Position numbers and translations under genes: made by a program
Shown: in pieces, positions 343-52,100 of the stretch
Position numbering within the stretch: the stretch's first letter is position 1
Layout: each line of letters begins with the position of its first letter
Assembly: GCA_976226885.1 (NCBI GenBank)
Contig: OZ320320.1
Location: 67,828,001-67,892,000 of the forward strand
DNA length: 64,000 nt
Direction of reading: 5' to 3'
DNA from: Iphione sp. A-MEVVRFRX5
Lineage: Eukaryota
Notes under the pieces: generated by a model
The model's database searches: none
What the model was told of the DNA's origin: nothing
Seen by the model: the letters and a program-made list of their open reading frames with translations, nothing else

Positions 343-1056
343 CTACAGGGGAGTGACATCTGAGGATGACGGGGTGGAGACGCCGCTCCAACCCGAGTCT
401 GATGACGTAGCTGGACGTCGCCCCTTAACTGGTTGGAGTTTGCCAGCCGAAGGTCGGCGGACGGTTAGTGGCTGCACGGAAGGCCAGTCGGGAGCTTCCA
501 TCTTCGGGGAAATCTTCATGCCTCCACCCAGGGGAGCCCCCTTCCCCCCCAGCTGGGCCAGGGTAGGGGTGGCCATCGCCTCTCTCGGTGGAAGCTCCTC
601 TTCCTCGGCCTCATCTTCCTCTTCATCAATGATAATAGGCTGGTGGGTGGATGCCCCAGCCCTAGAAGAATGGGCCTGGATTCTCTGGTTCCAGGCCTCC
701 TGCTCTTCCTGCCACTCGTGCAGCTCCCTCTTCCGTTTCTTCACTTCTGCAGCCTTTTGCACTTCTAACTCCTGCTTGAGGTGCGTCGAAAGGGGCAAGG
801 GACTTCCAAAAGTCAGCATATGCCCCCTGAACCGGAGATACTCGACATCAATACTGTGTCCCATAGCCAGATTGTGGTGGACCAATCGCAGGTGCCTGGT
901 CAGGTCCCCTTGACGCTTGAAGGCCCGACCCTCACAACGCGGATCGGGACACCTGCACCCAAACCCCTCGGTTTCGTGCACGTCCTCCAGGTGCCTCCTC
1001 AGGCAGTAGTGATTGGCAAAGGTCTTCTTAGAGAATTGGCATTTAAAGGCCTCCAT
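343..1056 (-). CDS. Accessory two-finger C2H2 zinc-finger protein of element 1 (237 aa from agcATGg; second Cys of finger 1 changed to Ser)
   Basis: MEAFKCQFSKKTFANHYCLRRHLEDVH-ETEGFGCR-CPDPRCEGRAFKRQGDLTRHLRLVH, followed by a charged helix, a basic patch and an acidic tract. Aligns with the ZF ORFs of elements 2 and 3. The frame is open upstream to about 1515. Confidence 0.8.
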   Translation of the reverse strand: MEAFKCQFSKKTFANHYCLRRHLEDVHETEGFGCRCPDPRCEGRAFKRQGDLTRHLRLVHHNLAMGHSIDVEYLRFRGHMLTFGSPLPLSTHLKQELEVQKAAEVKKRKRELHEWQEEQEAWNQRIQAHSSRAGASTHQPIIIDEEEDEAEEEELPPREAMATPTLAQLGGKGAPLGGGMKISPKMEAPDWPSVQPLTVRRPSAGKLQPVKGRRPATSSDSGWSGVSTPSSSDVTPL

Positions 1057-1886
1057 GCTACTGAGCGTATCAGGGAACGTTTGCTCCTGCGGTGGTCGGT
1101 TGATTCCCCGCACTTGGGCTGGGCTCCCCTCGCACCTCCTGGCGGCCGGGGTGATACACTGCCGCTGCAGCAAGTCAAGGTAGGAGCCACCGACGTGCCT
1201 CCTGGTGGCGGGGGGTGATGCAGGACCCCACGGGTAGGTTCCCCGCACTTGAGTCGCACTTGTCCGGCCTCCCGCTCTTCGCACGTCGCCTAAGCGAAAC
1301 CCCTCACGTCGAGCAATCCTTATTTCACCAAAGCGAGGGGTTAATTTGCGGGGCTGGAATTTACGTGGGGTTTGGCCTGTTCCTCGCCCAAGTGCGAAGG
1401 TCAAGGTCACTCCTCCCACGTAGGGTCCGGTCGATCGCTTCGAGGAATTATCCGTTCCCCGGTGTGCAAATTGCCCTTGCGCCTCGCACAGGAGTCCTGA
1501 CTTGGGGCCGCGCACAAAGGCTTCCTCTGCAACATTGAAAAGGGCGCCAACGGACTTTTCTTCTCTGTTAACCGGTCGGGCGTCCTCCTTCCTCGTGAAT
1601 TTTCCTTCAGGGCTCGTAGTTCAGTAACGCATGCTGCAGAGGGCGCCCCCGTCACGTTTCCTGCTTGGTTGATGCAGTCTCCATGAGATGCCGACACTTT
1701 GCAGGTTTTTTGCTTCAGCCGTTCCCTGCACGGTGGCAGCACCCCTGAGTCGCACCACGCTTCGGGGATACGCATGCCCGGTGTCGTTTGACACGGGGAG
1801 TGACTCGTCGATGGCATGACGTGCGAATTAATCACCGCACATGGTAGGCTTGTTTTAGGTTTCTCCGCACTGTCCAGAAGTCGCCG

Positions 1887-5620: not shown

Positions 5621-5632
5621 AGCCTTGAACTT

Positions 5633-7511: not shown

Positions 7512-7824
7512 GGAAAAAAATCTGTACACAAAGAAACAGGGTGTCCATGGATGTGCGGAAAACAGCTCATTTTCCGGACTTCACATGCTGTGCAGAAAAA
7601 AATCCATGCACATGGGTACCGGGCCTCACTCGCAGTTCTATTTACCGTGGGAGGCTAGGAGGGAAATCATGTCATTAGTAAGAGATTTTGCAAAAACGCA
7701 TGGTTTTATCCTAGAAATCTGTAAAATTCCCACCATATGACTGCAATCCCATTCATGAGTAGTAATAAGTTGAACTACATTTACATGTAATTCTTCCTTA
7801 TGCAGCTGTTCAAAACAGGAAGTA

Positions 7825-8402
7825 CAGTAAAAATCCATTACAGCGGACACTGGCGGGACTGTCTGCAAAGCGTCCGTTGTATAGGGTGTCCGCTGTGTCA
7901 GAGCTACCCCTTCTCCTCCACCAATAACCAATACAGTTGACTCTCATCCAGGGCAACCATTCACCCAATGAGAACACCATTTTAAGAAGAGAAATCTTGA
8001 GCATTTTCCACCCCTGGGGGCGACCAACTCTTATGGGAGACCACCATTTTAAGAATGAAAGTGATATGTTTCACGTTTGAAAGGATATTTATTCTGTAAG
8101 GTGTGGGTAGAGGTGTTAGCATGAACACTCGTCTCTAACAAAGAGAGTAACAGAGGGTATCCACAGAATGATAATTCATACTTTGCAGAGAAAGAGGGAG
8201 AAGGGGATATCATTTCCATGTTCCGTGTCTGCTGTAACACTGTAAAATCAGTGTTTAGGACGTAAAACGAGTGTCCACAGGTGGGTGTCCACTGTACATG
8301 AGTGGTCCCTGTGTCCTGTGTTTTATAAGGGTTTCATTTGCGACTACACTAAAAGCCCCCGTAGAGAGAGTCGTCCGCTGTCCGTTGTGAGAGTTTTTAC
8401 TG
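7825..8402. mobile_element. Non-autonomous Tc1/mariner-pogo-like MITE (family A)
   Basis: TA|CAGTAAAAA ... TTTTTACTG|TA. Subterminal and internal blocks (gcgtccgttgt, gtgtccacaggtgggtgtcc) are shared with 16782-16962 and 37053-37768. Confidence 0.75.
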
Positions 8403-22300: not shown

Positions 22301-25300
22301 GTTGTTATCTTAGCAAAAAAAGAGAGGACCTATTAGAGGAGGGGGAGGAGTAGATACCTGCAGATTTTTGTGGCTCTTTCTAATGATAGATTTCTCCATT
22401 TGATTGTGTGATACATTTGCTGAATTCCACAACACTTACAGTACTGAAATCATGTATCAATTGCTTGCCTTTTTGTATCGGAGAGTCAATGTTATGCATG
22501 TACACGTTAAAATTTTCACATATCGACCGACTGGCATTTGGGCAGGCAGATAGGCAGGTGGTAAAAAGAGACTGTCAGATGAGAAAAGTGTCTGTTGTTA
22601 TATATATGGCAACGATATTTTAAAAAAAATCTATTTTGCTGTGTGTCCACCCTACACGCTTCCAGCCGGGCAGTGCCATCAGCAGCAGTGCTGGCACCAG
22701 CAGCCACTCTTCGCGCTCCTCCAACCGTGCTCGTACTCGCCAGTACCGCACGGTGGCGCACACGGCGCAGGTCGACGAGTCGCTCTTCGGTGAGCCCAAC
22801 CGCGACGCCCACCGCCAGCAGCTGCTTGAGAAGAAATGGCGCCAAGAGGCGGCCTCTCCACTCGAGGAGGAGGCACAGAGGCGGAGCGCTGGTCGTCAGA
22901 AGAAGGACAAGAAGTCAAAGGAAACTGTCCAAGTCATCACCAAGGATCTCATCCGCAATCTCATGTAAGCCCCAGAGTTCATGATAGTATAGAATCTGGT
23001 GTAGATGAGTTATTTTGTGCTGCATACAGTGTAAATTTTTCTAAAGGTCATTCCTCTCATTCCAGGTAGTGGTTACTATTTTCATCTTGAAATTGTCATC
23101 AGTTACAGCCAGAGCCAAACTCCCTTCACCCAAAAATAGGAATCAAGACTAACATTCCGTAGCTAAAAGAAAGAAGCGCTTTTTGTGTTTGAACTTATGG
23201 TATTTGTTTTATGAATTTGTTGTACAGTGTGCCCTCTGAAGACCCGTCTGGACAGTCACTGATACTTCCCAGCTATGAGTTCTACCGCATCCGTAACGCA
23301 GCCCGCATCCTCACTGACGAGGATAAGAAGCACATGGCAGAAATGCACAAGATGGCTAAGGAGGAACAAATGGTGAGTTTAAACAGGGTATCCAGACGAG
23401 AGACTTTGGCAGTAGGGAGCTGTGGAGTTTAGATAAGTAACTCATGGGGGGGGGGGGGGTCATGCAGTTTATATGCTCCGTTTGGCTAGATTTACCTACG
23501 TTTAATTTGCTGTACACGTAAATGTGTAAGGAAAGTATGTTGTAATTGACCCATTGCGAAGAGATTGAAGAAACTGGTAGTACAGACAGATTTTTCACTA
23601 ATTGTGACGTAATCATGGAGGACCAAAAAAGTGACCCCAAAATGGTTGACAATTTCTTGCATTTCAAAGTTTGAACACAAATTTCTCATTAATTCCTTGA
23701 TAGATTCTCATCTAACTTGGTAGACATATAGATATTGTACGCCCCGATCGAAGAGACATAACGAAGTAGTACGTTTCCGAAGTTTATTGCATGAAGTGCA
23801 AAACATGAATGACAATGGTCTCCGCCTTGAAGCGATATTTATAGTAAACTGTAAAACTCTGCCCGGAGTCTAGACACTCCGCCCCAAATCTCCGCTAACT
23901 CCGCTAACTCCGCTACTCCGCCCACACTGCTCCCTTCTGAAAAAGGCTCGGACCCCGAGCCCACATAACTGTATGCAAGCTGAATAAAGAACTTGTCAAC
24001 AACACTGTCTGAACTTATCTAAGTCAATACGTAGAGAACAAGAACTAGAAGGAGCATGTACTTGCTCCTAAATGCTTCCTGAGTTGGGAGGGCATGTGCT
24101 TGCCCTCCCCTTAGAGAGCTTCACTTGGAAGTCTTCCTCGATGGTAAGGTCCACGTGGTCAGGATCCGCTTGACAGAGTTCGAAGAAGGACCGGGTGCAG
24201 CGGGCGCGAACACCCGCCACCTCCCGGCCCAAGGTCTGCACCCAGGCCTCCAAGGTGGAAGCGTCCTGCGGAGGGCTCCGCAGGAGCAACCGAGCTGCTT
24301 GACGAACTGTCACATGGTAGGAGTCTGTTCCAGCTGACACCGTGGACTGTCCCTTTGCTGACACTAGCCGCCACCCCAAGGGTGCGGCCACCAGGGGCGT
24401 AACCAGCCGGCCATTAGCCCAAAGTCGTACTGCCTCCGGAATGTTAGTGTCCAACAGGACTAACTGCCGCTTGGCGCCGGTCCCAGGGGGAAGGCGCCCA
24501 GCCGTTCCAGGACCGGCCACTGGGGTAGAAGGTAGGGGTGCCTTCTGCTGGCCCGGTCCCGCAGGAGTCGAGGTGGCGAGGGGGGACACGACTGTCCCCC
24601 CACCCAAACCACCGGCGTGGTGATGTTCGCTGTCCTCCCTCCCGGCCTGAGAGAGAGGGGGCTGATCCGGACGTCCCGGGGGTGCCGGGGGGATCACAGG
24701 CTGCACCGGAGGGGTATCCGGCGCCACTCCTGTGGGAAGACGATCCGTACTGACCACCGGGCCAGTACCCGCGGGTCCTGCTGGGGTAGGGAGATGACCC
24801 GCGCCGTCGTCGCCGCCAGCGTCGGGCGGAGCGTCTATGGGCGGAGTGATGTTGGGGAGCTGCAGCGAACTCCGCCCCGATGTCTCCGCCTCCGCTGAGC
24901 CGCCCTCCGCCGAGCTCACCGGCCCCGCGGGCCCCGCCGTCGTCGTCTCAGGATGAGTAGGAGGTGGGGGTCCCGCCGGTGCCAACCCCGTGGATTCTTG
25001 GTCTCCGGCGGCCTCGACCGCTCCGCCCGGTTGCTCCTCCTCCTCCTCCGCCGGCGCAGGCTCCGCTGAGTCTCGTCCCTCTGCCAGCTCCGCCAGGGTC
25101 CGTACGGCCTCATCGATATCTCCCTGGGCGACCTCAGCACCACCGGACGAGTCTAGTACCGCGTATCGTACTTGTCCCACGGTCGGCTCTCCTTGTTCGG
25201 TCTTCTTCTCCGGCCCAGGTTGAGGGGGCGCCGCCTCTTCCTCTTCCTCGCTCGAGGTGAGGACCACCACTTCGCCACCCTCATCCTCCGGCCTCGTCCA

Positions 25301-28300
25301 GTCTAAGCCCAGCCGTGCGTCCAGGTCCCTGGCCTCCTGGCTGAGGGTCGAGTACGATGATCCGGGCGTAGCAGATGACGGGGTGCCCAGGATTCCTGCG
25401 GTGGTGGCGGCTCGAGCAAGGGGGGACATCGTAGCGGTGAGCCCCTTTCCTGTAGTAGCCTTCCTCTTAGCTGGGGTCGGCGTCGCTGCTTCGCCTGCAG
25501 ACGAGATGGGGGAGGTGACTGGCTGATACCCCCCCGGCCCGCTCTCATCTCGCGTAAGTCCAAATCGTGGCCGGGCGTCCTCACATGGGAGTGGGTATAC
25601 CAGTGTGGTAACCCCTCCCCTTTTCCTTTTTCTCGACCCCCGTGGTGAGGCCGGGCTCGCGCCGCCCCCGGGGTGCTGACATTGGAGGTGGGGGACGCCG
25701 TCTGCTCTTCCTGGGCCGCCCGTTTGCGCTGCCTAGCTTCACATGCGGCTGCCACTCGCTTCAACTCAGGGGTGAGCCCTGTACTGGCCGGGGAAGAGTC
25801 CAGCCCATGCAGCCGTACATCCACTGACCGGCCTCCAGCGGAGCCCAGTCCTGACGGTCCAGCACGAGGGGAGCCTGGGGTCCCCTGCACGGTCGAGGTC
25901 ACAGCTTCCCCCTTGCTCCCTCGCGGCCGCAACTGCCGGTCGGACGCCTCCGTCGCCTCCTCCTCTTCGCTCTCCCCTTCGTCATCGTCCTCCTCTTCCT
26001 CCTCTTCAGATTCCTCCACCGCGGCCGGAGTGGTGCCAGAAGAGCTACTCCGTTGCCGCTCTCGCTTGGGACGTGGAGGAACGGGGTCCCCCCTCATCAT
26101 GGCTCTCTCCTTGGCCCGCTCCCATTCCTCAACTCGCAAGAGCCAGCGTTGCTCTTCCAGCCTCCGTTGAGGAACCCTTGCGTCGCGCCCCGTCTTCAGA
26201 TCGACGAAGCACAAGTCTGCATCCTGCCCCCACTCCAGGTAGTGGTCCCCGTCGGTGGAGTGTTGGGCCTTGAGGTGCCGCCGGAGGTCGTCCCGGCGCT
26301 TGAAGATGGCCCCGCGACAGCGAGGAGCGGGGCAACGCCGGCAGAACGCGAGTCGTCGATGGGTCCCCATGTGCCGCCGCAAGTTGCCCGGTCGGTCTGT
26401 CTGGTAGCCACAAAGGTTACACCCGTGGCTGGTGTCCCCGGTCTCGGCCATTTCCACGTTGTCGGGGGCCCCTGGTTCTGGTACGCTCCGCCCTGGGTGT
26501 AGAGGCCCGCCTCGTAACAGCAAGTCTGGTCGTAGGAACGGCGGGGGGGTGGGCGGTCTCCGCTGGCACGCCTCCGCTGTTGTCGTGCTCCGCCCGGAGC
26601 TCGTCTGCACGTCCCTCGAGGGCGAACTCCGCCGGCCTGGCCTCGGTTCGCTCCGCCCGGAGAATGAAGGGCTGCCTCGTAAAGGCAAGTCCGGTCGCGG
26701 GAGAGGCGGTCTCTGTCGGTGCGTCTCCGCTGTCGTCGCGCTCCGCCCGGAGCTCAGCTGCACGTCCCTCACGGGTGAACTCCGCTGGGCCAGGGAAGGC
26801 GATCTCCGCTGCTCTTGCTCCGCCGCTGTCGCACTCCGCCCTGGAAATGACCTCTCCGTTGGGGGAGCGTCTCGGTGAATGGATTGAACAGCCCACTCCG
26901 CTGCCTCGCGCTTATAAGCACCCGCCAACAGCTCCGCTAGTCTCTGATTGGCTAGCGGTTCGCGCGCTCGCCGCTCATTGGTCGACGCTGGGCGGAGTGC
27001 CGTCAGCCCCCTTTGAGCCCGCCCTGCGGTCTCCGCCGAGCGGAGAGGTTGGCTAACTCCGCCCGGAGACAGCTGCTGGGCGGACTCCGCCCGGGACTTG
27101 TCGCCTCGCCCGTCTTGGCCCCAGGGCGGTCGCCGACCTTCCAGCTGCCACTCTCGGCAGTGCCCTTCCCAGAGCTGGGCGACCAGGGTCTTGGTGGCTT
27201 GACCTCCATAGCGCTGGCGCAGCTTCCGGCATATTCCTCGAAATTTCCACAGTGCCAAACCGAACCGGTCGCGGCGACGGGGGCGTCCAGTCTTCTTCGG
27301 GGGAACAGTCTTCCTCGCCGTACGCCGGGGGCCTAGCATTCCCCGCGTCTGTCGATGTAGCTCCCGCAGTTCCTGGTTCAGCATCTCCGCCCAACCCCGG
27401 GGAATGCGACCCTGGGTCGGAGTCGGCCGTTCACGGGCGGTGCTCTCATCCCCTTCGGGGCCGGTTACCCGTCGCCTGTACCACCGAGGGGGTGGCACAC
27501 GGGCTGAGTGAAGTTCCATAGCGTCCTGACGAAGGACGTTCACTCGGCCGATCACGTCGGAATCTTCCCTCGCTTCTGTGGCAAACGCAGGCTTCAAGAG
27601 ATCGGCGTGGACAATTCGTTGTTTGCTACCTCGCCCAATGCGGTATACCACCGTACTGAGTCTGGCTCTGACCTCCCACGGCCCCTGCCAGCGGCACTGA
27701 AGCTTGGGCGAGCGTCCCTTCTTCTTGATAGGCGAGTAGACCCAGACGTTGTCACCAGCTCGATATTCCTGATGCCGCACCTTCTGATCGTACCAGTCCT
27801 TACGCCGCTCGGCTGCTCGCTGAAGTTGTCGCCGTACCGTTGAATGCGCCGTCACTAATCGATGGCGGACAGATTCCACGTATCCGTGCACACTCACCTC
27901 TGGTTCCCCAGGCGAACCGACCATCAACTCGACTGGAAGGGTGGTTTCCCGACCCAGGGTCAACCAGTTGGGGGAGAACCCCGTCGTGCGATGAGGAGTA
28001 GCCCGGTATGCTGCCATCACAAAGGGTAGTTGTTCGTCCCAGTCCGACTGGTCCTCCTTGACAACCTTGGCCAGCATTCCTGTCAGTGTCCGGTTGAACC
28101 GCTCCACCACCCCATCGCTCTGAGGATGGTAAGGAGTGGTCCGGGTCTTTTGAATCCCCAGCAGTCGCAGGAGCTCCCGCATCAGCGCAGCGTCGAAATT
28201 TCTTCCCTGATCAGAATGGAGAATGCGAGGAGGTCCGAACCGGCATACTACCTCCCTGAGGAGATGGCGAGCGGTCGACTCTGCATCCACTTCTGCCGCG

Positions 28301-31300
28301 GGAATCGCCTCTGTCCATTTCGTGAAGTGGTCGGCGACCACAATGATGTAGCGGTTACCTCTAGGAGTAGTCGGAAACGGTCCACACACATCCACAGCCA
28401 CTAACTCCCAAGGTCCAGGAGCCAGCCGGAGTTGCATGGGCGCTCTTCGCTTGCGGGCAGGGTCCTGACGACGCTGGCAATCGAGGCACTCTTGATTCCA
28501 GCGACGAACATCACGCCCGAGTCCGGGCCAGAAGTAGCGTAGGCGAACTGCTCCTTCCGTCTTCTCGGGCCCGAGATGCCCCCCGAGAGCGCCTCCATGC
28601 ACCTCCTTCCAGACTGCCCACCGCAAGCTCTCCGGAACGTATGCCTGATGGCGCAGGCCCCCGTCCTCCATACTCCACTGCCGGCACAACAGTCCACGGG
28701 ACACACACAGTCGAGGCCACTCATTTTTCAGGCATCGCGTCTCATAGTCATCTTCCGGTACGCGTTCGGGTGCCTCTCCTTCTTCCTCCACACGACGGCG
28801 CAGGTCCCGCGTCAGGTCATCCTGTTCTTGAGCCTGCCTCAGCCCACCTTCGTCCGAACGAGCCTCAACTTGCAAGGCGGCCACTTGTCCGGTTAGGGTC
28901 TCGTCATCCTCTTCCGGCTCCCTGCCACACTGTCGGCACCTGGTCCTCGAAAGACTATCCGCATTACCGTGACGGCGGCCGGGTCTGTGCTCAATTTCCA
29001 CGTCGTAACAGTACACTTCCTCTAACCACCGGGCTAGCTGACCCTCGGGTTCCCGGAACCGGCATAACCACCGCAAAGAGCTGTGGTCCGTACGGATCAC
29101 CACCTTCCGGCCCCCGACGTAAGCGCGGAACTTGCGTAGGCCGAATACCACTGCCAGCAACTCCTTACGTGTGACGCAATAATTCCTCTCGGCCTTCGAA
29201 AGACTCCGGCTCGCGTACGCTAGCACCCTCTCCTTGCCGTCTTGTTCCTGCGATAACACAGCCCCAATTCCAGCGATGGAGGCATCCGTGTCTACCGTCA
29301 TGAGTCCTTCGGCTCTGGGATACGCCAAGATAGGGGAAGACATCAGCCGATTCTTGAGTTCGTCGAACGCTGCTTGGCACGCGTCGCTCCAGCGGTATTC
29401 TTCCCCCTTCTCAAGGAGCTGGTGAAGAGGTGCAGCCACGCTGGCGAATCCTTCAATAAAGCTCCTATAGTACGAGCAGAGGCCGATGAAACTCCTGAGC
29501 TCCGTGACACAACGGGGGGGCGTCCAGTTCTGGATGACTCTCACCTTCTCAGGGTCCGGCTTCACTCCTTGGGCTGACACCCGATGGCCAAGATAAGCCA
29601 CCTCTCTCTGGAAGAGCTGGCACTTCTGCGGCTTAATCTTGAGCCCCGCTTGGCGCAGCCGACCGAAGACCTCCTCGAGACGCTCTACCATTTCCGGAAC
29701 CGTCCGGCCGATGACAATCACATCGTCAAGGTACACCAGGCAACTTCGTCCCACTAGGCCCCGGAGTACCGCCTCCATCAGGCGCTCGAAGGTGGAGGGA
29801 GCGTTGCACAGTCCGAAGGGCATCACCCGGAACTGGAACAGCCCCCCAGGCGTACACACGGCTGTCTTCTCCCTGTCTTCCGGACGGACCTCCACCTGCC
29901 AATAACCGCTAGCCAAGTCGATTGCCGAAAAGAACTGCGCCCCCGAGAGTGCATCCAACGTGTCATCTATTCGGGGCAGTGGGTATGCGTCCTTCTTGGT
30001 CACTTGGTTGAGCGCCCTGTAGTCGATGCAGAACCTCCAGGAATTGTCCTTTTTCTTGACTAGGACGACCGGAGATGCCCAAGGGCTCACGGAGGGTTCC
30101 AGTACCCCTTGCCGCACCATCCGTTCCACCTCTTGCCGGACCACTTCTCGCTTCCCTGGAGGTAGCCGCCGAACTCGCTGCCGGATGGGCCGGTGACCTT
30201 CCACCTCTATCCGATGTTGCACCTCGCTTGTGCACCCCAGTGGTTCCCCATCCTCCTGCAGGCAAGCTTGGTTTCTTGTCAGCATCCTATGGATAGCCTC
30301 CCGATCCTCCGAATCAAGTTCCTCTGGTAGTCCCGACATTAGGGTGGCCACCGCCGAACTTCTCTTCTCACTTCCTCCCTCTGCTGTGACGCTGAGGGCC
30401 GCACCGAGCTGTTCCGGGTGGTCGACCAGTTGGGCTCTCCCGACTACCGTCCCTCTCCTGAGGTACCGCCCGTCCGGGCCAGCATTGGCAACTTCCACCC
30501 GCCCGGACTGACTCCCTGCCTGGCATAATGACCCTGCCAGTCGCAGCCTGGACCGTGCCTCCCACTCGGGGGAGGGTTCCACCAGCACGGCATCCCCGGA
30601 GCCTCCAAGCTCCTCCCACGCCACGGAGACCTCCCGTGTGGTGTAGCCGTCCAGCTGGCAATCCTCTGCCAATGCCACCTTGCACCCCCAACTGTCATCT
30701 TCCTCCGGCACGCTCACTCTCAATGTGGCCTCACTAGTGTCCACCTGGGCCTTCCAGCGACGCAAGGTGTCCAGGCCAAGAATGGCAGGACAATCAATGC
30801 TGGCCACCCAGGCATCAATTTCCAACTCCTCCTCCGCAAACTTGGCCGTGATGTTGGTCTTGCCTTTCACCCTCAATGGGCTCCCGTCTGCACAGAGGAT
30901 CCTTCCTTTAGTCGGGGCGAGCTCCGAGGCGCCCACGGCCCCCGCCGTTTCTTCGGAGAGGAGCGTCAGGGACGCCCCCGTATCCACCAACCACGGCACC
31001 TTGTATCCTCCCACCTCGCTGACCAGGATAATGTTGGCGGCAGGCGTCCTTTCCCCCTGTAGCAGCACTTCTCGCGTCCCTTCCAACTGCAGAACTCTCA
31101 AATGCCCCGCCAGCCCGTCACGCGTATGCTTCTCAGGTTGGGCCGCCCGCTCTACTGCTGAGGGGCGGCCGGTTCCCCGTTTCCCGAGGCCGTAGAGGGG
31201 GGAAGTTTGGGGCACTCTCGTTTGAAGTGTCCTGGCTCCCCGCAATTGAAGCACTTCTTCGGGCCGGTCTTCTTGTTGCTTCGCTCCTCTCCTTCCCGGT

Positions 31301-34300
31301 TACCCACCAACTGCATCAGTAACTTTTCGAGCCGTTCCAATGCCGCTGAGTTGGTTTCCACCTTTCCACTGGGCCCCGATCCAGCAGCAGGCAGGGGGGC
31401 CGCCTCTACCTTGTGAACCTTCTTCGGAGCCGCCCGCTCCTGCTTGTTCTGATAATACGACTCGGCGACCTGAGATGCAGAGAGGGCCTCCCTGAAGGTT
31501 GTCACCCGCGCCTGGGTGACCCATTTACGGACCTTTTCGTTTGCGAGGGCCCCAACGTAATATTCCCGGCACATCCTGTCTTTCCAAGGCCCTTTTGCTT
31601 CCGGATAGGCCAATTGCACCAACCTCTCCACCTCGTCCGCCAGGTCTGCCAGGGCCTCCTCCTTCCCTTGCCGACGCCCCTTGAGCTGCTGGATATAAGC
31701 GTCGGTTTGGTGCTTGGACTGAAACCTCTCCGACAGCGCCTCCACCAACCTGGCATAAGCCCCGTCCTCCGCAACGTCAATTCCAGACCCCCGCAGCACG
31801 GCTCTCGCTGACTTTCGCAACACGATTCCCAGTTGTAGGGCCTTCTCCGCTTCCGTCCACTGATTGGCCTTGGCGACCAGCTCGAAATGTTGCAAAAAGT
31901 CTCGCAGTGGTGTGCTGCCATCATAGGTGTCCGGCTTCACCTGAGACTTCCGGGGCTGCGGGTCCGGGCGCAGCGCCGCCCGCAGCTCCTGTACGAACCC
32001 ATGCCAGAGGGGTGGCTCTGACGACACCGCGGCCTCTTCCTCTTCACCAGTCTGCTCACCGTCATCCTCGCCGGGTTCGCGGTCATTCACTTCTTCTCCT
32101 TCGTGTCCCGAGGCGCGTGGGGCTATGGAGGGGACAGGTAACTGATGTCCCTCTCCGGCCCCACCAGAACGTGGGGGATCTCCGCCAACCGATTCTCTCT
32201 TGGCCGACTCATCCGCTTCGCTTCCCCATAGCTCGTCAGCTGCGTCGTCCGGTAGCTCCGCCCGGAGCTTGCCGAACTCCGCCCACTCGGCGGACTCACC
32301 CTGCTCCGCCGAGTGCTCCGCTCGCCGCTCCGCCGAGTCGGCCTCCGCCGCTGCTCCGGTGGCGGAGATCCCACCGCTGCCACCAATTGTACGCCCCGAT
32401 CGAAGAGACATAACGAAGTAGTACGTTTCCGAAGTTTATTGCATGAAGTGCAAAACATGAATGACAATGGTCTCCGCCTTGAAGCGATATTTATAGTAAA
32501 CTGTAAAACTCTGCCCGGAGTCTAGACACTCCGCCCCAAATCTCCGCTAACTCCGCTAACTCCGCTACTCCGCCCACAATATACATGTTATCTTGGATCT
32601 GTAATATCTCTGTGGGCAGGAAAAGTAGAAATGTAAAATGTTGACGAGGTTGATAGTCTGGCTAGTCATGACCTCGTCGTCACCAGTTAGAGCATGCAAA
32701 TATACTCTTTGACGTCATGCTCATCTGGTGTTTTGTAAAATCAACTCGGCGATAGGTCAATTATTTTAGAATTCCTGACAACGACATATAGAGACAAACT
32801 CTGGGCAAAAAACAAATTTGTTACACAGTGTGTGAGTGAATCTTTCACCTGCTGTTGATCCGTTCTATAATCTTAGGGACCCAGCAATAAGACTTATAAT
32901 AGGCAAGACAAAGATGGGCATTATTTGCTATTGATGAGAAAGGTTATACCATTCAATCACTTCTGATGAGGAGGATTACCATTTGCTCACAATTTAGATG
33001 ACAGGTTATTTTTCTCTTTCGAGCAGTGTTATTTTTTTATAACATTTGTATCATTATCCTGTAACACATCAACCTTCACTTGTGCTTTCTACGTCGGCCT
33101 CTATTACTACATGGCTGTTTCTCTGTTTGGGTTGTCCCCAGAGTGCTGTCGCAGATCGCAAGCAGTACATGAAGCAGCATGATGTCGACCGGGTACAGAA
33201 TGAGAAGCTGTCTGAACTGGAGGAGGAGGAACGTGAGAAGAGGGAATACCTCAAGGAGAAGGCTAACGCTCAGCGTCAGGAGCAGGAGGATGAAATCAAG
33301 AAACTCAATGAGGTGAGTTCTGCCGGTCACCGGACCCTTCACTTGAGGGATGAGTGAAGCATCCAGACGACCTTTTCACCCTAAAGTCACTTAATCGCAG
33401 TTAGTTTGAAGCTGTTGTTATTTGTGATAAAACAGACCCGATATTTTTGGACCATGCAGTCCGTGTATAATGGACCAAGGAGGGGAGCCACTCTGGAAAC
33501 ACTGATGTCCGACCATCCTTCGGGATCTTAATTGTAGGTCTATCTGTTTGTAAACCATTTAGTCAAATGCACTGACTTTTAATATGATATCACCATATGT
33601 GGACTCTTGCTGCTTTAATTGGTGCTGTTTGAGGTGAACTAAGGGTAGCTTTTCTTGACTTAAAAAGTATCTGTCCTACCACTAGGAAGCGAAGAAAGTC
33701 ATACCTGAGTGCCCAGCTCTTAGAAGTTCATGGTAGAGTAGTAAGCAGCGGTCGTAGTGGCCAGCTGGTTGTTCGGAGGTTCAAGTTCTTATATTTTGTT
33801 CCCCAGCTAATCCTTAATGCCAAGTGCCACGCCATCCGTGATGCTCAAATCCTAGAGAAGCGCCAGATCAAGTCAGAGCTGGTGGAGGAGGAGCAGCGGT
33901 TGGACGCCATGATGGAGGCAGACAGGCTCAACAGCATCCAGGTAGAGGAGAGCATTAACCAGCGCCGCAAGCAGGACCGCATGGTAGGAGCCATGAAGGT
34001 CATGGAACAGATCCAGGAGAATGAGCAGGTACATACATTCTATCATATAGTCTATCATATGCTGTATCTGTCATACATTCTACCAATACATTGTCACATA
34101 TTCTTACATACATTTCCATGCATTCTTTTTATGATTCTATCTTGCATACATTCTATCGTACATTACGTCATGCATTCTGTCATACATCTGTCTCCATCAT
34201 GACATTCAGTCGATCCATGTCCCAACATACATTGCATGATCATCAGTCCAAAAGAAATGAACCATCTTAAGGACTTTGTTGTTTTGAGGTGTCAGTCTGT

Positions 34301-43100: not shown

Positions 43101-46100
43101 TTTAAGAATACCGAGAAATACATCCCAGTAACAACATTATCACAGTAAAACAGAGAAGTACATCTCTGGAGCAATCGAATTTCCAACTCTGAATATAGGG
43201 AAGTACATCCCAACCATAAAAAAAGGGTAGCTTATTAATCTGAAGAATCTGGGAAGTACATCCCTGTGTCAAAATGCAAGAGTGGTGGGACTTAAGGTCC
43301 AAGTCTCTGTGTAACTCACTGAACTGGAAGAACGTCCTTGTAGTCTAGCACCAATATAACTTATTTACATAGGGTGCCCATAGGGCACAGTCCGTAATCC
43401 TGGGACATCCGTTTCGACTCAGTTATCGTCTGTTCGCCATTTCCACAGTCCAACACAGCCGGTCTCACTCTTAATCCTCCAACCCGCCCCTTATGGGGGC
43501 GGTTGGGCCCTGGTCCCCGACAAAGGTCTCGTCCGCGGACAGGGAGGCCACCCCGTCTTCACTGTTCGTCACCATAACATCATTATAGGAGAGCCTCATG
43601 TGGGCTCCACCTCTGGCTCGCCTCGCTTGCCACCAGGTCCACACACTGGTCTGGGCCACATCCGGTTGGGGACTCAGTTCAGCAGAGTGGTCAAAATGGA
43701 CCTGGGGCCTTGCTGAATGTAGGCGAAACCGGATCCTCGTCTCGGCTGTCCTGATGCGCCAACCAGCTGGCGGCGCTTCCCCAAGGGTGAGGGCCCGACC
43801 GTAGGCCCACTCGATCAGCTCTTGTTCTTCCTCAGCAGACAGCACTGGCCACGGTGTTGGGGCCGTCGCTGCCCGAGGGGGACCGGCCCCACGTGGGCCA
43901 GCCCCTCCCTCACCTGGGCCCGGGGGAGCAGCACGTGGGCGAACCTCGTGAAGAACCTCTTCTTGCTCGCGGCGTGGTCCGGCCCCCGGCCCCGGAAGGT
44001 CATCGCGCGGGTGACGCTCGTGAAGGACGTCCATCTGGTCGCGCCGTGGTCCCGCCCCTGGTGTCGCTGTGTCCCGCTCGGGGGACTGGCGGCCGGCCGG
44101 ATCACCCTCCCCCCCCTCCTCCTCCGACCCATGGGCGCCGGTCGAAGGGGATAGGGTGGGCGGTCGAGGGCCAGGGGGGACCTCCTCGTCGTCGCCGCCC
44201 TCTTCTTCTGGTCTGACACCCGGCACGTCGTCAGCTCCGGCTTCCGTCTCTCCGAGGCCCAATAGTGTGGCCACGGCCTCGTCCACGGCTGCTCCCGTCG
44301 GTTGGTCGCCATTCCGGTCACCTCCGGTCGTCTGCCACGTCGCCCTTACCGGTGGCCTCCTCGGGGCCGATGGCCAACGTCCCCGCCCCCCCGGCCGGGG
44401 TAGTGGGCAGCGAGGGTGGTAAGTCTCTCTCCGAGAGGGTCACGGCGAAGACCCTCCCGGATGGTGTAGAGGTGGTAGGCTCCTCTCGTCGCTCGGACTG
44501 GCCCAACCCAGCCTGTCGGATGACCTCGGCCGCCTCCTCACTCCAGTCCGTGACAACTGACGAGGGGGAGGGCAGTGCTGAAGAGGGCTGGCTCCCGGCA
44601 CGGGGTGATGCTCGGTGCCGGAACCCGAGTCCCAGCCCCCTTCCCTTGGGTGCGCCGCAGTCAGTAGGAAGGAGCCATCCTCTCCCCGGGGTCGGGGGCG
44701 AGCTCCCCGGCAGGGACACTCGGGGGGAGGTGGCGGCAGGCAGTCCTCCGGCCCCTCCTGGGGCAACCTCTTGCTGGCGGTGGCGAGCCTCACTGAGCCG
44801 GGCGGCCGCGATCAGTTGCGGCGTGAGGCTGGGTGTGGATGCCCGGCTACTCGAGTCTAGGCCCCAGAGCTGAACGTGCGTCCCTGGTCCCGGCGACAGC
44901 CCCGGGCTCCCTGCACTCGTCCGTCCCTCGGGTAGGCTGACCGCTGGGCTGCCGGTACTGGATACAACAGGCTTCTGTGGCACCGTACTCCCTGCCTGTC
45001 CGGGGTCGGGGGTAGTCTGGCTGTCATCCCGCTCTGGCGAAGGGGTGGCCGGTCGCCCCCGTGCGGCGGATGCTCATCACGGCAGACGTTTCCGGGGAGG
45101 AGGGTTGGCTGAATCGCTCTCCAAGTCGCGAGGTGATGACGTCATCTTCCGCCGCCCCGTCGTCCGTTGCAACCCCGAGGTCGAAGGCTGAGGAGACGCC
45201 GCCCTGCCGCTGGAGCCCGACGTCACCACCTGTAGCTGGCCATCATCGGACGAGGTCAGCTCCTCTTCCACGTCGTCGCCTTCTTCCTCCGAGTCTTCCT
45301 CTTCCACCATCGACGCCGACGTAGTGCCCTTGGCTCGCTTCTTACTTGGCACGTCCTCCCCGCGAATCATGGCCAGCTCTTTTCTTCTTTCGAACGCCTC
45401 AAGTTCCTTCTCCTGTTCGAATTCCGCCTGCCGGAGGGGAGGGACTGGCACCACGGTGCCCGTCAACGGGCCTGCCTCTGTCGAAAACCTCATGAACTCC
45501 ACCTCGACATCCTGCCCAATCTGGAGGTAATGGGGCTGGAAGTCTTGGTGGACCCCTCGAAGGTGGCGCCGGAAGTCGTCCCGGCGCTTGAAGATCTTCC
45601 CCTTGCACCGCGGCACGGGGCAGCGCCGTACGAAACCCTCCGCCTCATGCACACGGTAATGGCGGATCAGGTTGGCTTTCCGCCTAAACACCTTCTGGCA
45701 TCGGCTGCAACGCGGCGACGGCTTCCTCGCAGGCATCTCTCTCCGAAGACGGCGACACGCGGGGCAGGTAGTATCTTCTCCGCGCGGGGACGGTACCGTG
45801 CGGGGTTGGACCACCCCGCCCGGGGTAACTTTCTCCGCGCGAGGACTGGGTACCCCGCCTGGGGCTCTGCTATGGTTATCCCCGCCCGGGGATGCGGCGA
45901 CGTTCCTGTCAAGGGTACTCCGCACCGGGGTCGCGCAGACCACTCCGCTCGGGGCGTTGGTCGACTCACTGAAGCTATCCCCGCCCGGGGATACACACAC
46001 GTTGATAATGCTTCGGCCTGAAACAATTCGTCCAGTCTTTGCTTCCTGTTGTAGGGGTACAGCTTGTTCGTCACCTCGATGGCGTCTCAACACAAGTGGC

Positions 46101-49100
46101 GGTCCCCGCGCGCACCTTTCCTTATATACGCCGCCACTACTCCGCAGTCGATTCTGATTGGTTGATTCAGATCTCGCGGTCAACGAGACAATGTTTCTCC
46201 GCGCGTAGTGCGGGTATCTGGTCTTTGCCGCCTTCTCTTGGTGCGGGGTCGTGGACTTTGCCCCTCCTTCGTGCGGAGACTTTGTCTTCGTCGATATGCG
46301 CAGTCGCTCTCCCCGCTCGTGGTGCAGGGGCGTGGACTTTGCCGCTGGGGCTCGACGCGGGGTCACGGACTTTGTCGTCCTCTCCTGCGGAGACCTTGTC
46401 TTGGTCGATGTCCGTGGCCCCCCCCCCGCTCTTGGTGCGGGTACCTAGACCCGAGAGATCGGCGGTAGCGCTCTTCGTTCAACTGGTTGAACTCTCGGAA
46501 AATTGCAGTGGTGGTAGACTTCCCGATCCTCTCTTCCATCTTGCGGCGTACTCCCTTTATCTTCCACATTAAGCGGCCCAAACGATATTTAGCGCCTTTA
46601 TCATTGAGGGACATGACTCCAGCCAAGTATGCCTTGCTCAGTAGGGGGGCTACTAGTTTAGCCCAGGCTCCTTCTTTGTTATTCCTTGGTTTCCACCTCT
46701 TATCCTTCTTTTGGGCGAGACAATCCTTCTTCTCTCCCGGAGGCCTGTACCACCGTGGGGGGGGGCAGTGTCCGGGCCGGAGCGTCAGGGCTTGCTCCGG
46801 TCCCTCAAAGGTCGATCTAGGAGGGGGGGGCCAGAGGTCCTTCTGTCCTCTCTGCTCCCCCGCGAAACCTGTCGTGGTCCCTCCTCCTGACCAACCCCCA
46901 CTACCAGTCCCCCCTCGTGGTGCCTCCAGCTCTTCCATCTCTTCTCGCCACACCGCGTGGACCACCCCTATGACGTTATCACTCGGGGCGGTTATTGCTG
47001 GCTTCAGTAGGTCAGCATGAACGACTCGCCGCTTCCTTCCGTGCGCGATGCGATAAATGACCTGAGACAACCGACTTTCGATCACCCACGGGCCGTGCCA
47101 ATGACGCTGTAACTTTGGGGAACGTCCAATCTTCTTCGTGGGGTCTAGTAGCCAAACGGAAGCTCCTTCCTGATATACGTGCTCCCGCACACGTCGATCG
47201 TACCAATCCTTTTGTCGCTCGGCACACCTCTTGAGCTTCTCCCGGGCGAGGCTGTGAGCTTGGATTAACTCCTCCTGCTGTCGATTGACGAATTCCCCTC
47301 GGGGTTCCGAGTCTTCTGGCGGCTGTCCAAACATCAACTCTGCTGGCAAGGTCGTCTCACACCCCAATAACAAGCTATTGGGAGTCAGACCCGTCCCACT
47401 GTGAGGGGTGGCCCGATAAGCAGCCAGCGCGAAGGGGATCTTCTCGTCCCAATCCCCCTGTCCTTCTTCCACCAGAGCAGCCAACATGCGGTTCAACGTA
47501 CGGTTAAATCTTTCCACCACTCCATCGCTCTGGGGATGGTACGGAGTGGTCCGGGATTTCTCTACGCCTAGCATCTTCAACAACTCGCGGAAGAGCGCCG
47601 ACTCGAAGTTCCTGCCTTGATCGGAGTGGACTATCCGGGGAGGGCCATATCTGCACACTATCTCCTTGAGTAACACGCGGGCTGTGGTCTCTGCCGTAAA
47701 ATCCGGCACTGGAAAAGCTTCCACCCATTTAGTAAAGTGGTCAGCCACCACGAGGACATAGCGGTTCCCTTGCCTGGTCTCTGGAAAGGGGCCGCTTACG
47801 TCTACTGCTACGAACTCCCATGGTCCAGCGATGGGTCGGGCCATGAGCGGACTCCTCTTCTTCACCCCCGGATCTTTGGTCTGTTGGCAAGTCAAACACT
47901 GCTGTCCCCAGCGCTCCACATCACGTCCTAGGCCTGGCCAGAAATACCTGATGCGCAGAGCACCTTCAGTCTTCTTCACTCCCAAGTGTCCTCCCAGAGC
48001 TCCGGAGTGCACCTGCTCCCAAACTTCTTGCCGTAACTCTGTAGGGACATAGGCTTGAGGGGTCTTGCTGCCATCCTCTCTGTCAAACTGCCGGACAAGG
48101 ATGCCATCCTTCAGTGTCAAACGAGGGGTCTCCCCATAGAGGCACCTCTCTTCCCGATTGCCCGGACTGATGGAACCATCCTGCTCCGGTGCGCGGCCCT
48201 GTTCCAGTGCTTCGATGATTTTTCCTGTTAGTACCTCCCGCCGTTGAGCTGCTCGGAGTACTCCTTCACCTACTGGCACCACCCTAACGGCACACACCTC
48301 TTCGGTTGCTTCGTCTTCTTCTTCCTCATGCCGACCACACTGAAGACAGACCTTCCTTGACAAGCCGTCTGCGTTCCCATGTAGCCGCCCCGGGCGATGC
48401 ACAATTTCTAAGTTGTAGGTGTAGACCTCTTCTAGCCATCGGGCTAACTGTCCTTCCGGTTCCTTAAAGTTGCAGAGCCAACGAAGAGAGTTATGATCGG
48501 TACGAATGCACACGTTCTGGTCCCCCAGGTATGGCCGAAATTTCCGCAGTCCGAACACCACCGCCAGCAATTCCTTGCGGGTGACGCAGTAATTCCTCTC
48601 AGCCTTCGTCAACGTCCGGCTTGCATAGGCTAGGACCCGTTCTTGTCCATCTTGGTCCTGGGAGAGAACAGCTCCGATCCCTCCTGCTGATGCGTCTGTA
48701 TCGAGGTGGAGTTGCCCCTCAGGCCGCGGATACCCCAGCACCGGTGCGCTAGTCATTCGCTTCTTGAGCTCTTGGAAGGCCTCATCGCATTGGTCGTCCC
48801 ACCGGAACTCTGCATCCTTCATCAACAGCTTGTTCAAGGGCGCGGTGATGGTAGCGAAAGCCCGTACGAAACTTCGGTAGTACGAACAGAGGCCAATAAA
48901 ACTTCGTAGCTCCGTCAGGCAACGAGGGCGTGGCCAAGTCTGTATGGCCCGGATCTTTTCAGGGTCCGGCCCTACACCATCAGCTGAGACCCGATGTCCC
49001 AGATACGCCACTTCCTCCTGGAAGAGTTGACACTTGCTTGGCTTCACTCTCAGTCCCGCCTGTAACAGCCTGCTGAACACCTCTTCTAAGCGGTCGACCA

Positions 49101-52100
49101 TTTCTTCCACTGTCCGCCCGATCACAATCACGTCGTCCAAGTAAACTAGACAAGTCTGTCCGTCCAGTCCTCGCAGCACTGCCTCCATGAGTTGCTCGAA
49201 CGTAGAGGGGGCATTGCAGAGGCCGAACGGCATCACAGTAAACTGGTACAACCCGGCAGAAGTACACACCGCTGTCTTCTCCCTGTCCTCCGGTCGTAAC
49301 TGTACTTGCCAGTATCCTGCCGCGAGGTCAATGGCCGAGAAGTACCTCGCCCCCTGCAGGGCATCCAGGGTGTCATCGATGCGGGGGAGAGGGTAGGCAT
49401 CCTTCTTGGTAACGCGATTCAGGGCCCGGTAATCGATGCAAAACCTCCAACCACCATCTTTCTTCCGGACCAGGACTACCGGTGATGCCCAAGGACTGGT
49501 TGATGGCTCCAGAACGCCCTTCTGTAACATGTCGTCCACTTCCTTCTGTACAGCCTTGCGCTTGGCCGGAGGCAGTCGTCGCACCCTCTGACGAATTGGA
49601 CGGTGCCCCTGAGTGTCAATATTGTGGACGACCACTTCAGTTCGTCCTAACGGCTCGTCTTCTCGCTGGAACACCTGGCTGCAGTGCGTCAACATGTCTT
49701 CGATGCACTGTCGCTGGGAATCGGATAGCGAGTCCGGCAAGGTTTCCAACAGTCCAGCCAGCCCGCGGGTGCTTCCTTCTTCGACCACTCGTGCCCGTCC
49801 GCATTCTTCTTCTTCTTCTTCGCCTGAGACTGGGGTCGCCACTCCTATGACTGTCCCCTCTCTCAACCGTATCCGCGTAGAGCCGGGGTTACAAAGCTGC
49901 AGCTGACCTCGTGTCACTCCTGTCTCCCACAGCGTCCTAGCTACACGGATTCCCGACCTCGCCTTGAAGCTCTCCGCGCCTTCCACTAAGACTTCCTCGG
50001 CGGCCCTGGCGGCCCCAACCAGCGCCGCCTCCACGTATCCTACGCATCCGCCTTCCACCGCTGTGTCCTCTACCAGACAGACTCGCCGTGACTCGCCCTC
50101 GCTGTCCTTCGGCACCCTCACTCGCAGCTCGGATGTAGAAGCGTCCAACAACGCCCTCCAATGCACCAAGGTGTCCATGCCCAGAATTCCGTCGCAGTCA
50201 ATGTTAGCAATCAGGACCTTCACGGAAACACACAGGGACTCGAACTGTACTTCCACCTCCGCTCGTCCTCCCACCTTCAGAGGCGTCCCGTCTGCACACA
50301 GCACACGTCCTCCTACTGAAGCTCGACCCTCAACGCCCACTGCTTCCGCAACTTTTTGACTCAAGATCGTAAGGGAGGCGCCCGTATCTACCAGCCACTT
50401 CACTTTTCTTCCTCGAATCTGGCTACTGAGGATGATGCCACGGCCAGTCCGGTCTGGGTCTCCTTCCAATACCACTTCCTGGCACTCGTCCTCCCCCAAT
50501 CGCAGTTGCCACAGATGATCCTCAGCAGGGTCTTCAAGTGTGGTGACGGCCGCCCTCCCTACTGCTGGGGAGCGGCCGCTGGCCCGTTTCCCGAGGTCGT
50601 GGCTGCAACCGATGTCGCCCCTTTATACTGCGGGCAGTCCTTCTTGAAGTGTCCCGGGTCATCACAGATGAAACAGCCCTTCTTCTTTCCCTGCCTACGT
50701 GCTCCTGTTCCCGCGTCTTGGCGCTTCACCAGCTGTCCCAGCAATTCTTCAATACGGCGCCACGGTTCGGCCGCTCCACTGGACTTGCCTTCGACGCTCT
50801 CCTCTCTGTGTTCAGCCACGTGTACCCGCTTCGGCGTGCGTTCTCTTTTGCTGTCATAGTACGACTCGGCCAGTTGAGCTTCCGACAGTGCTGTACGGAA
50901 GGAGGTGACCCGTGCCTGTGTTACCCACTTCCGCTCTTTTTCGTTGGCCAAGGCCCCAAGGAAGTACTCCCGACACATCCTGTCCTTCCACTGGCCCGTG
51001 GCCTCGGGATAGGCCAAACGGACCAATCGTTCCACATCATCGGCTAGGTCGGCCAGCTTCTCCTCCTTCCCCTGCTTCCGATACTTCAGCTGCTGCATGT
51101 AGGCATCGATCTGATCCGCCGGCTGGAACCGATCACGTAGGGCCTGGACTATCTTGTCGAACGCTCCGGGCTCTTCCACATCGACTTGTGCGTTACGCAA
51201 CGCCGTCCTTGCTGCCTTACGCAAGGCCACTCCAAGTTGTATGGCCTTCTCTCTGTCATCCCATGCGTTGGCCGCCGCAACCAGTTGATAATGATGGAGA
51301 AAGTCAGGCAAGGACGTCGTTCCATCGTAGGTGTCCGGTCTAATAGAAGTGCGACGGGGTCTCTCTGAGGGTCGGGCCACCCGCCTGAGCTCGTCAACCA
51401 GGTCCTGAATGAGGGGGTCCTCTTCCTGCCTCGGCCGGGCTTCCTCCTCATCACTGGACTCCTCTTCGGAAGATGCTACAGCAGCGTCTTCTTCCTCCTC
51501 TTCGAGTTCACGGGCTCTAACTGCTCGGGGTCGAGGTGCGGGAACGGGGGTAGCTGTTATCGCTCGCCTTTCCCCCTCCCCGGCACCTGTAAATGGGGAT
51601 AGGGTCCTTCTCCTCCTAGCGGTCTCCTTCTCCTCAGATCCAAGGGTACAAGCCGTGTCAGCACCGAACCTCGAAGGAGCCTTCTTCCCCCCTCTGGGGA
51701 AGTTCTCCGCTCGGCCTGACGACCCATGCTCTGCCCCTGGGTCCTCCGCCCCAATTGCGGGGAAAGGTGTCTCCGCAATTTCTGAGGGGTAAAGATGCTC
51801 CGCATCTTTTGAGGAGTAAGAGTGCTCCGCACGATCTGAGGAGTAATAGTGCTCCGCACGATCTGAGGAGTCGGTATTCTCCGCACCAGAAGGAGAGTCG
51901 ATCCCACCGCTGCCACCAATGTTACGACCCGATCTAAGCATTGCGAATAAACCGATGTCCACACAGAAGTAAAATAGACTTGTTGTTTATTCAAGAGCAA
52001 ACCGTGAACTGAACTGTGTCCCCGCACGCACTCCTATTTATACACCAGCCATAACGTGCGGGGTAACTAACTGCGGAGACATTTACTCCTCAAAGATCGC

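Follow-up and report, generated by a model that had tools for sequence, protein, structure and literature searches.

In the usual view, long terminal repeat (LTR) retrotransposons rely on host transcription factors and are held in check by host silencing. A review describes few regulators encoded by transposable elements themselves, VANC being the clearest, and attributes self-control mainly to the transposase or Gag (PMC6719617). Here we analyse a 64,000-nucleotide stretch of contig OZ320320.1 from Iphione sp. A-MEVVRFRX5 (assembly GCA_976226885.1, positions 67,828,001 to 67,892,000; hereafter the window), animal DNA whose minus strand carries three related Gypsy LTR elements. A terminal domain of about 110 amino acids is common to the last open reading frames (ORFs) of elements 2 and 3, and we put forward, tentatively and at slightly under an even chance, that it folds as the C-terminal module of a sequence-specific transcription regulator, one that the element both encodes and is targeted by.

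The domain closes a colinear cassette downstream of integrase, which consists of a motif-rich spacer, an ATG, two C2H2 zinc fingers, an acidic tract, a GLDSS block, a helix of the pattern DEAVxTLxxLxE (the DEAV helix), a low-complexity linker and the terminal domain. Foamy viruses have 3' accessory genes, an internal promoter, a DNA-binding factor for the LTR and internal promoter, and a spliced product that suppresses this factor (PMC13220597). The likeness to their Tas/Bet system, in 3' accessory genes, internal promoter and suppressing second product, serves as a working-model analogy; foamy viruses are retroviruses with env and no sequence similarity to them was noticed, whereas the cassette uses C2H2 fingers and its internal start and splicing are putative. 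VANC, from Arabidopsis VANDAL elements, is likewise an element-encoded accessory protein paired with a high-copy family motif (PMC6719617), but it belongs to plant DNA transposons and is demethylating, whereas here an animal LTR element carries a repressor-type helix, and no homology between the two was found. Gypsy elements are known to carry extra ORFs of various kinds (PMC5408684), and the non-Env ORF3s among them, from bdelloids (GDSL, DEDDy, transmembrane) and from Drosophila MDG1 (sORF2), are often placed after pol (PMC5408684, PMC11952523); the cassette differs from these in having no enzyme match, no transmembrane segment and a linked DNA-binding module. The likeness to TIEG/KLF10-11, Drosophila Cabut and Tet1 lies in C2H2 fingers for GC-rich sites and a short amphipathic helix of EAVxxL type (PMC3281117, PMC6168491), but the cassette is encoded by a retrotransposon, has the extra terminal domain and a Thr at the position of Tet1 Ala896, and its Sin3 binding is a prediction. 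KLF10/11 are thus resembled in component parts (PMC7215894), without membership. By analogy, the cassette would work like Tas/Bet and VANC while resembling KLF10/11 in its parts, and it would be a member of none of them.

1-7177, minus strand: element 1, cut by the window edge
23736-32578, minus strand: element 2
42830-52152, minus strand: element 3
24068..25732, minus strand: element 2 last ORF, 554 codons; one ATG at 25429; acidic/Pro-rich linker from helix to domain
43471..44439, minus strand: element 3 last ORF, 322 codons; first ATG 44034
About 24119..24436, minus strand: element 2 terminal domain, predicted folded part, with a predicted alpha-beta-beta-alpha-beta-beta two-layer fold
43519..43836, minus strand: element 3 homologous terminal domain

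The terminal domain and its fold

An earlier note on this DNA had claimed that the last ORFs of elements 2 and 3 share two blocks, the DEAV stretch and the terminal domain. The stretches it quoted exist on the minus strand, in the ORFs at 24068-25732 and 43471-44439, and both blocks are indeed shared; more blocks appear once neighbouring frames are compared. The terminal segments (143 versus 129 amino acids, identity 23-24%) gave a Smith-Waterman score of 65, which was reached by none of 5000 whole shuffles (maximum 59) and by none of 5000 shuffles within 10-residue windows (maximum 64, a narrow margin), so that the alignment is significant against shuffled controls of either kind. The two segments are reciprocal best matches among 1288 six-frame segments, with next best scores of 42 and 53, and BLASTP aligns them at an E value of 4e-5 with 24/99 identical residues. 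For the last ORFs as wholes, the score was reached in 6/2000 window shuffles.

Of the nine frame pairs the true one alone scores (z 8.2; others at most 2.2), and different codons are used at 21 of the 28 identical residues. It follows that the constraint is on the protein, and we conclude that the terminal domain is under protein-level constraint. Nucleotide identity by codon position is 0.36/0.48/0.28. The conserved motif reads WAxGRxxTxxxAxPxGWR, with five positions between T and P and not the four given in the earlier note.

The note had further stated that the protein occupies the env position, lacks a signal peptide or transmembrane helix and belongs to no known family, and it had suggested a silencing suppressor. 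A simple hydropathy scan found no hydrophobic segment in either last ORF (maximum over 19 residues 0.97 and 0.64), in agreement with that statement, and an Env glycoprotein or an sORF2/FAST fusogen was rejected on the same scan. An Env-like protein, an RNA-silencing suppressor or a chance resemblance of unrelated ORFs is very improbable. The env position, the low identity and the narrow local-shuffle margin (64 versus 65) speak for this group, and an alpha/beta fold could bind RNA; however, there is no hydrophobic segment and no Pfam match, and the domains are not basic (13 K+R versus 13 D+E in one, 11 versus 16 in the other). Homology over chance is backed by the frame test, the synonymous codons and the order of predicted structure. 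No evidence for an RNA-silencing suppressor was found in this analysis, and a VANC-like chromatin anti-silencer, weighed below, stays a rival.

No family could be assigned. Pfam families at E up to 1 numbered zero for both whole last ORFs and both domains, so no known Gypsy ORF3 domain was matched there, and an enzymatic ORF3 (GDSL, DEDDy) was rejected on the same result. The domain had no match in the ESM Atlas, Pfam, PHROGs or NCBIfam, none in phages by tblastn, and two matches among PDB sequences at E of about 0.5 only. A set of 5.8 billion sequences (lengths 249-793 only) yielded 534 candidates, none at E 0.1, and 60 pattern matches in GTDB genomes included none that could be confirmed. 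HMMER over 1.84 billion representatives returned a single match (P0003), which was rejected as a homologue, being a bacterial-looking repeat protein whose score was summed from 11 short stretches. These negatives are weak, because the two known copies reach only 27 bits when compared with one another, too little to be detected in such libraries; Repbase, Dfam, GyDB, the HHpred libraries and metagenome and viral contig collections lay outside the search. Searches with the zinc finger region were also empty (63 and 390 candidates), and the element lineage therefore seems absent from the searched sets.

AlphaFold, run on the two-sequence alignment, gave a best model with a mean predicted local distance difference test score (pLDDT) of 67.4 and a predicted template modelling score of 0.63, in the order helix, hairpin, helix, hairpin. 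The structures matched are permuted ferredoxin-like proteins, namely phage tail terminators of gpU type, PilO and S6 permutants. The best match, 9mu2_D from the SaPI1 neck, has Z 7.5 and a root-mean-square deviation of 3.6 over 100 aligned residues at 5% identity, and with this query model of moderate confidence none of 48,161 chains reached Z 8. Foldseek on the AlphaFold models, a check proposed in the earlier note, did return matches, all of them generic, with query TM-scores of at most 0.46 among the matches listed. The likeness to the gpU-type, PilO and S6 folds lies in the two-layer arrangement; against kinship with gpU-type tail terminators stand the Z below 8, the 5% identity and the lack of any tblastn match in phages. 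On these models, the ferredoxin-like matches appear to be generic and at background level, as would be expected of a common arrangement rather than of kinship. The DNA-binding domains of papillomavirus E2 and EBNA1, also considered as candidates, were not among the fold matches listed, and the low-confidence element 3 model gave nothing usable in the fold search. The terminal domain is an orphan fold, matched to no family within the searched sets.

Zinc fingers, their arrays and the DEAV helix

26260..26421, minus strand: element 2 C2H2 finger pair; ATG at 26451; helices predicted to read GCG-GAG
45077..46444, minus strand: element 3 zinc finger ORF; ATG 45736; fingers 45548-45709; acidic tract; basic end
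343..1620, minus strand: element 1 zinc finger ORF, with a changed first finger; ATG 1056
26452..27579, minus strand: element 2 spacer from integrase to zinc finger ATG; 20 GCGGAG copies; open in the pol frame
45737..46989, minus strand: element 3 spacer; 21 GCGG[AG]G copies; TATA-like site 46128
32388..32578, minus strand: element 2 5' LTR; 6 GCGGAG, five upstream of a TATA box; ATAT target duplication
51920..52152, minus strand: element 3 5' LTR; 6 GCGG[AG]G copies

The finger helices of elements 2 and 3 carry R/N/R in finger 1 and R/D/D/R in finger 2. Published tables of engineered modules assign RSDNLVR to GAG and RSDDLVR to GCG and place the C-terminal finger at the 5' triplet (PMC5260015, PMC7317221). 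Since the helices match these modules at -1, 3 and 6, the predicted word is GCGGAG. This word ranks first of 2080 hexamers both in the element 2 LTR (6 versus 0.12 expected) and in the element 2 spacer (20 versus 2.3 expected), in each case reached in 0/200 shuffles, whereas it ranks 50 in element 2 gag-pol and stands at background level in host DNA, for which the comparison covers about 38 kb of the window. The motif is thus at high copy in the element and low elsewhere, as with VANC, and the flanking host DNA is not enriched for it. Spacer copies fall in different reading frames (8/9/1), so they are not a codon effect. In element 3, the LTR holds 6 and the spacer 21 GCGG[AG]G copies, and in element 1, where the first finger is changed, the arrays are centred on TGCG and GCGGAG ranks 900 and 520. 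Arrays are strong in two of the three spacers and a TATA-like site is found in one; the element 2 spacer is a candidate internal promoter. We consider it likely that GCGG(A/G)G arrays in the LTR and spacer are bound by the fingers of the same element.

Sp/KLF factors have three C-terminal fingers with canonical linkers. The cassette has two N-terminal fingers joined by an atypical linker of 8 residues, and Sp/KLF membership was rejected; neither KLF nor Sp is named in the best 60 of 102 PDB matches. Sp/KLF GC-boxes were also rejected as the sole explanation of the arrays, as GGGCGG covers 11/28, 3/27 and 0/8 of the copies only.

25079..25114, minus strand: element 2 DEAVxTLxxLxE helix, like a Sin3-interaction domain
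44248..44283, minus strand: element 3 DEAVxTLxxLxE helix, lying before the first ATG in its ORF

Taken alone, the DEAV block is weaker than the terminal domain (6/5000 shuffles). The pattern A[IV]x[AGST]LxxLxE occurs twice in 127,996 codons, each time precisely at a DEAV block; shuffling the residues of the last ORFs produced it in 83 and 19 of 100,000 versions. The Sin3-binding helix of Tet1 has the key residues A893, I894, L897, L900 and E902 (PMC6168491), and the Sin3-interaction consensus of TIEG proteins is EAVEAL (PMC3281117). Both copies match five of the six named Tet1 positions and show EAVxxL as in TIEG; each contains the helical LxxL core of Sin3-interaction domains, preceded by A-[IV] and followed by an acidic residue. 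Before the first Leu both have Thr where Tet1 has Ala, and the cited passages report only an Asp substitution at that position. The DEAV profile found no relevant entry in the PDB. By its resemblance to these motifs, the helix may dock into a PAH domain of the host Sin3-histone deacetylase (HDAC) complex, such that the helix-bearing form would dampen transcription and the short zinc finger-acidic form could activate it; we hold this to be an even call. The suggestion in the earlier note of an effector partner of the zinc finger protein thereby gains a specific form, in that the helix fits the Sin3-interaction motif, but that the partner is a separate protein is doubtful.

The last frame of element 1 contains, at about 25-55 on the minus strand, AVxALT after acidic residues, a partial match to a Sin3-type helix without the second Leu. 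A DSG/DSS sequence followed by Ser/Thr-Pro lies in the tails of the zinc finger frame of all three elements (about 370-400, 25775-25800 and 44850-44870, minus strand), and resembles what we take to be a phosphodegron consensus.

The arrays also bear on two other explanations. A VANC-like anti-silencer could occupy the CpG-containing arrays and so hold the element open; the helix would then decoy or redirect Sin3, and the terminal domain would be the effector. Family-specific motif arrays are found with VANDAL/VANC (PMC6719617), the motif contains a CpG, and the host DNA is depleted of CpG (observed/expected 0.45-0.59) while the spacers are not (0.92-0.99). The domain also diverges fast between elements 2 and 3, as host-conflict proteins do (23% identity versus 84% in reverse transcriptase, with 76% in RNase H, 66% in capsid, 63% in integrase and 49% in the zinc finger region). 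However, young insertions are CpG-rich anyway, repression by Tet1 and TIEG proteins requires a Sin3-type helix according to the papers cited above, and Pfam and PDB sequences offered no link to any anti-silencing protein. We regard this explanation as improbable.

Alternatively, the whole cassette may be a C-terminal extension of Pol/integrase that acts in the particle or in integration, where it would bind the LTR or provide target tethering, and the terminal domain would then serve for assembly or tethering. Here, the element 2 pol, spacer and zinc fingers form a single ORF of 1998 codons, upstream of the ATG the zinc finger frame stays open for 376, 236 and 188 codons (0, 3 and 10 of 5000 shuffles), a G10 run lies in the pol/zinc finger overlap of element 3, and the weak fold matches are assembly modules. 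Against this, an ATG stands immediately before the fingers in 3/3 elements, the element 3 spacer has its TATA-like site, the motif shows no enrichment in flanking host DNA and the Sin3-type helix fits transcription better, which together make an extension of Pol quite improbable.

Reading frames: one protein or two

44318..45073, minus strand: element 3 middle ORF, ATG-less; in the zinc finger ORF frame after two TGA codons; GLDSS block 44627-44926
25609..25875, minus strand: element 2 GLDSS/LTP-helix block, conserved, in the pol/zinc finger frame
25529..25535, minus strand: G-run, the only one of 7 or more in element 2, in the overlap where the coding signal passes from the zinc finger frame to the last ORF
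2-421, minus strand: element 1 ATG-less open frame after the zinc finger ORF, cut by the window edge; no ATG in 140 codons

The last ORFs are open for longer than expected (0/5000 base shuffles for element 2 and 4/5000 for element 3). Comparison in all frames gave a colinear series of fingers, acidic tract, GLDSS block, a weak middle block, DEAV helix, linker and terminal domain. The GLDSS block, which is conserved between elements 2 and 3 (0/5000 shuffles, z 10.1), is in the zinc finger frame of element 2 versus the ATG-less middle ORF of element 3, and the element 3 DEAV helix (44248-44283) is upstream of the first ATG (44034) of its ORF. For these reasons the pieces look like one colinear unit. 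A linker repeat that spans the first ATG of element 3 has 9 of its 14 differences at third positions, including all four upstream of the ATG, indicating that the region upstream is translated. The last frame of element 1 has no significant similarity to the other ORFs.

The earlier note had taken the last ORF for a second accessory protein. It stands that a conserved domain is tied to the zinc finger gene; its separateness is doubtful, since the helix precedes the first ATG in element 3. A separate protein with helix and terminal domain, made from its own start or a spliced message, tethered to the zinc finger protein by way of the terminal domain and acting as its effector in trans, would account for the frame change between zinc finger ORF and last ORF in all three elements, for the one ATG (25429) upstream of the helix in element 2 and for the two stops that end the element 3 zinc finger ORF, and Gypsy ORF3s are typically separate spliced units (PMC5408684). 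However, element 3 has no in-frame ATG upstream of the helix and none in its middle ORF, and the element 1 last frame has none in 140 codons. The frame breaks after the zinc fingers lie at non-homologous places in elements 2 and 3 and differ in direction. No 5'-region splice donor is common to both, several being found in element 2 and none above 2 bits in the first 900 nucleotides of element 3. We therefore judge a separate second protein to be unlikely.

Runs of G are usual sites of copy-specific slippage or read error. A run of 7 or more is present in 3/3 post-pol overlap zones of elements 2 and 3, although there are only four such runs in total, and within the post-integrase regions this arrangement arose by chance in 96 of 200,000 trials; in two cases the range estimated for the coding-signal switch includes the run. 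A conserved programmed frameshift from the zinc finger frame to the last ORF is not supported, there being no canonical slippery heptamer in those overlaps. As for splicing, element 3 has donor-like sites at 45345 and 44349, which rank 4th and 2nd of 503 GT sites when scored with a donor matrix and of which the second falls within the range estimated for the middle-to-last switch; it also has an acceptor-like site at 45033, 3' of the double stop; such sites can be fitted to element 3 by hand, whereas the best element 2 pair does not fit. On balance, it is slightly more probable than not that at least one product unites the helix and domain with the fingers, whether through splicing, through slippage or because these copies are broken. 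An independent second gene is somewhat less likely than one unit with alternative products.

Several points weigh against a self-targeted regulator that ends in the terminal domain. Two copies of the domain lie in the window and no homologue was found in the searched sets, so its conservation rests on one pair; only one of five AlphaFold models was confident (67.4; the other four from 48.5 to 27.8), and the element 3 domain folded alone scored 38.8, yet with the same secondary-structure order in register. The finger code was derived after the LTR repeats had been seen, tandem duplication inflates the motif counts, the top word in element 3 is GCGGGG (the predicted GCGGAG ranks 6 and 4 in LTR and spacer) and 11/28 of the element 2 copies sit in GGGCGG boxes usable by host Sp/KLF factors. 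The Sin3 pattern was set post hoc and widened to admit Thr at Tet1 Ala896. Within the reading frames, the middle block that joins GLDSS to DEAV is weak (23/2000 shuffles), the G-run at the element 3 middle-to-last switch is outside the estimated range (44352-44318), this reading does not account for the double TGA at the end of the element 3 zinc finger ORF, and in element 2 an ATG belonging to the last ORF itself lies upstream of the helix. Moreover, a random break in element 2 is not expected, because the insertion is very young, with gag and pol intact.

Under the self-targeted regulator that we favour, probably a Sin3-recruiting repressor form to judge by its motifs, the fingers would bind the LTR and internal arrays of their own element. 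A short zinc finger-acidic product might activate the element promoters, and a product with the DEAV helix would recruit Sin3-HDAC and dampen them. The terminal domain, at the end of the long flexible linker, would multimerise and confer specificity for clustered sites; clustering and multimerisation would be needed because a 6-bp site, common in any genome, cannot single out the element. That the domain oligomerises or docks a partner to this effect is possible, although we would not count on it. The fullest version, in which an env-less animal LTR lineage encodes a complete switch of a two-finger reader that changes together with its array, a short activator and a long, multimerising, Sin3-recruiting repressor, we hold to be doubtful.

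The host elements and the significance of the cassette

31152..32411, minus strand: element 2 gag, including a zinc knuckle; slippery site GGGAAAC at 31185
25303..31299, minus strand: element 2 pol ORF (protease, reverse transcriptase, RNase H, integrase), in frame into the spacer, zinc finger pair and GLDSS block
23736..23926, minus strand: element 2 3' LTR; 0/191 differences from its 5' LTR
42830-43062, minus strand: element 3 3' LTR; 98.3% identical to its 5' LTR

Pfam confirmed gag followed by the order protease, reverse transcriptase, RNase H, integrase in both pol ORFs and the gags, and LTRs, a primer-binding site (presumably of tRNA-Leu type), a polypurine tract and a target duplication are present, as in Ty3/Gypsy elements. 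The pol of element 1 is fragmented. Element 2 is inserted in an intron of a CFAP45 gene, whose closest solved relative is 8snb_3W (E 3.8e-12), which we take to be a sea urchin entry.

Three distinct related families thus lie within 52 kb on the same strand, with ATAT at all visible ends and near-identical primer-binding sites, which may reflect a target preference or a cluster locus. In elements 2 (32411) and 3 (about 51941) the start codon of gag is inside the end of the 5' LTR on the minus strand, and gag is therefore read through the primer-binding site. Between the element 3 LTR end and its ATAT flank is a CT (52153-52154), either an untrimmed end or a changed target duplication. The integrase tails of element 2 (27151-27501, minus strand) and element 3 (46396-46797, minus strand) have in common a PPPRWY motif and a basic helical block, whose similarity was reached in 2/2000 shuffles and which has no Pfam match; this block may be a second unassigned module on Pol. 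In element 1, a 216-bp unit that repeats the integrase end is present three times at 1887-2531 (96% matches), and the 3' untranslated region of element 3 (43070-43300) repeats a GATGTACTTCCC-like unit also present in its LTR. Elsewhere in the window, a dispersed family of small repeats has copies at 7822-7905, 16779-16964 and 37050-37770 and is probably a non-autonomous DNA element, the 37-kb copy containing tandem arrays of 63 and 64 bp, and an assembly gap of 193 N lies at 38096-38288.

Searches of the open literature, with curated repeat libraries, subscription journals and supplements outside their scope, listed no paper on a C2H2 and Sin3-helix cassette in an LTR retrotransposon. Most of the interest comes from the cassette, the domain alone being an orphan fold of modest interest. 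As the predicted binding word is legible from the fingers and present in the element's own promoters, self-regulation is directly testable. If true, the cassette would represent a new mode of transposon self-control together with an undescribed domain: a family-specific self-control at the level of chromatin, which would be the retrotransposon counterpart of complex-retrovirus regulation.

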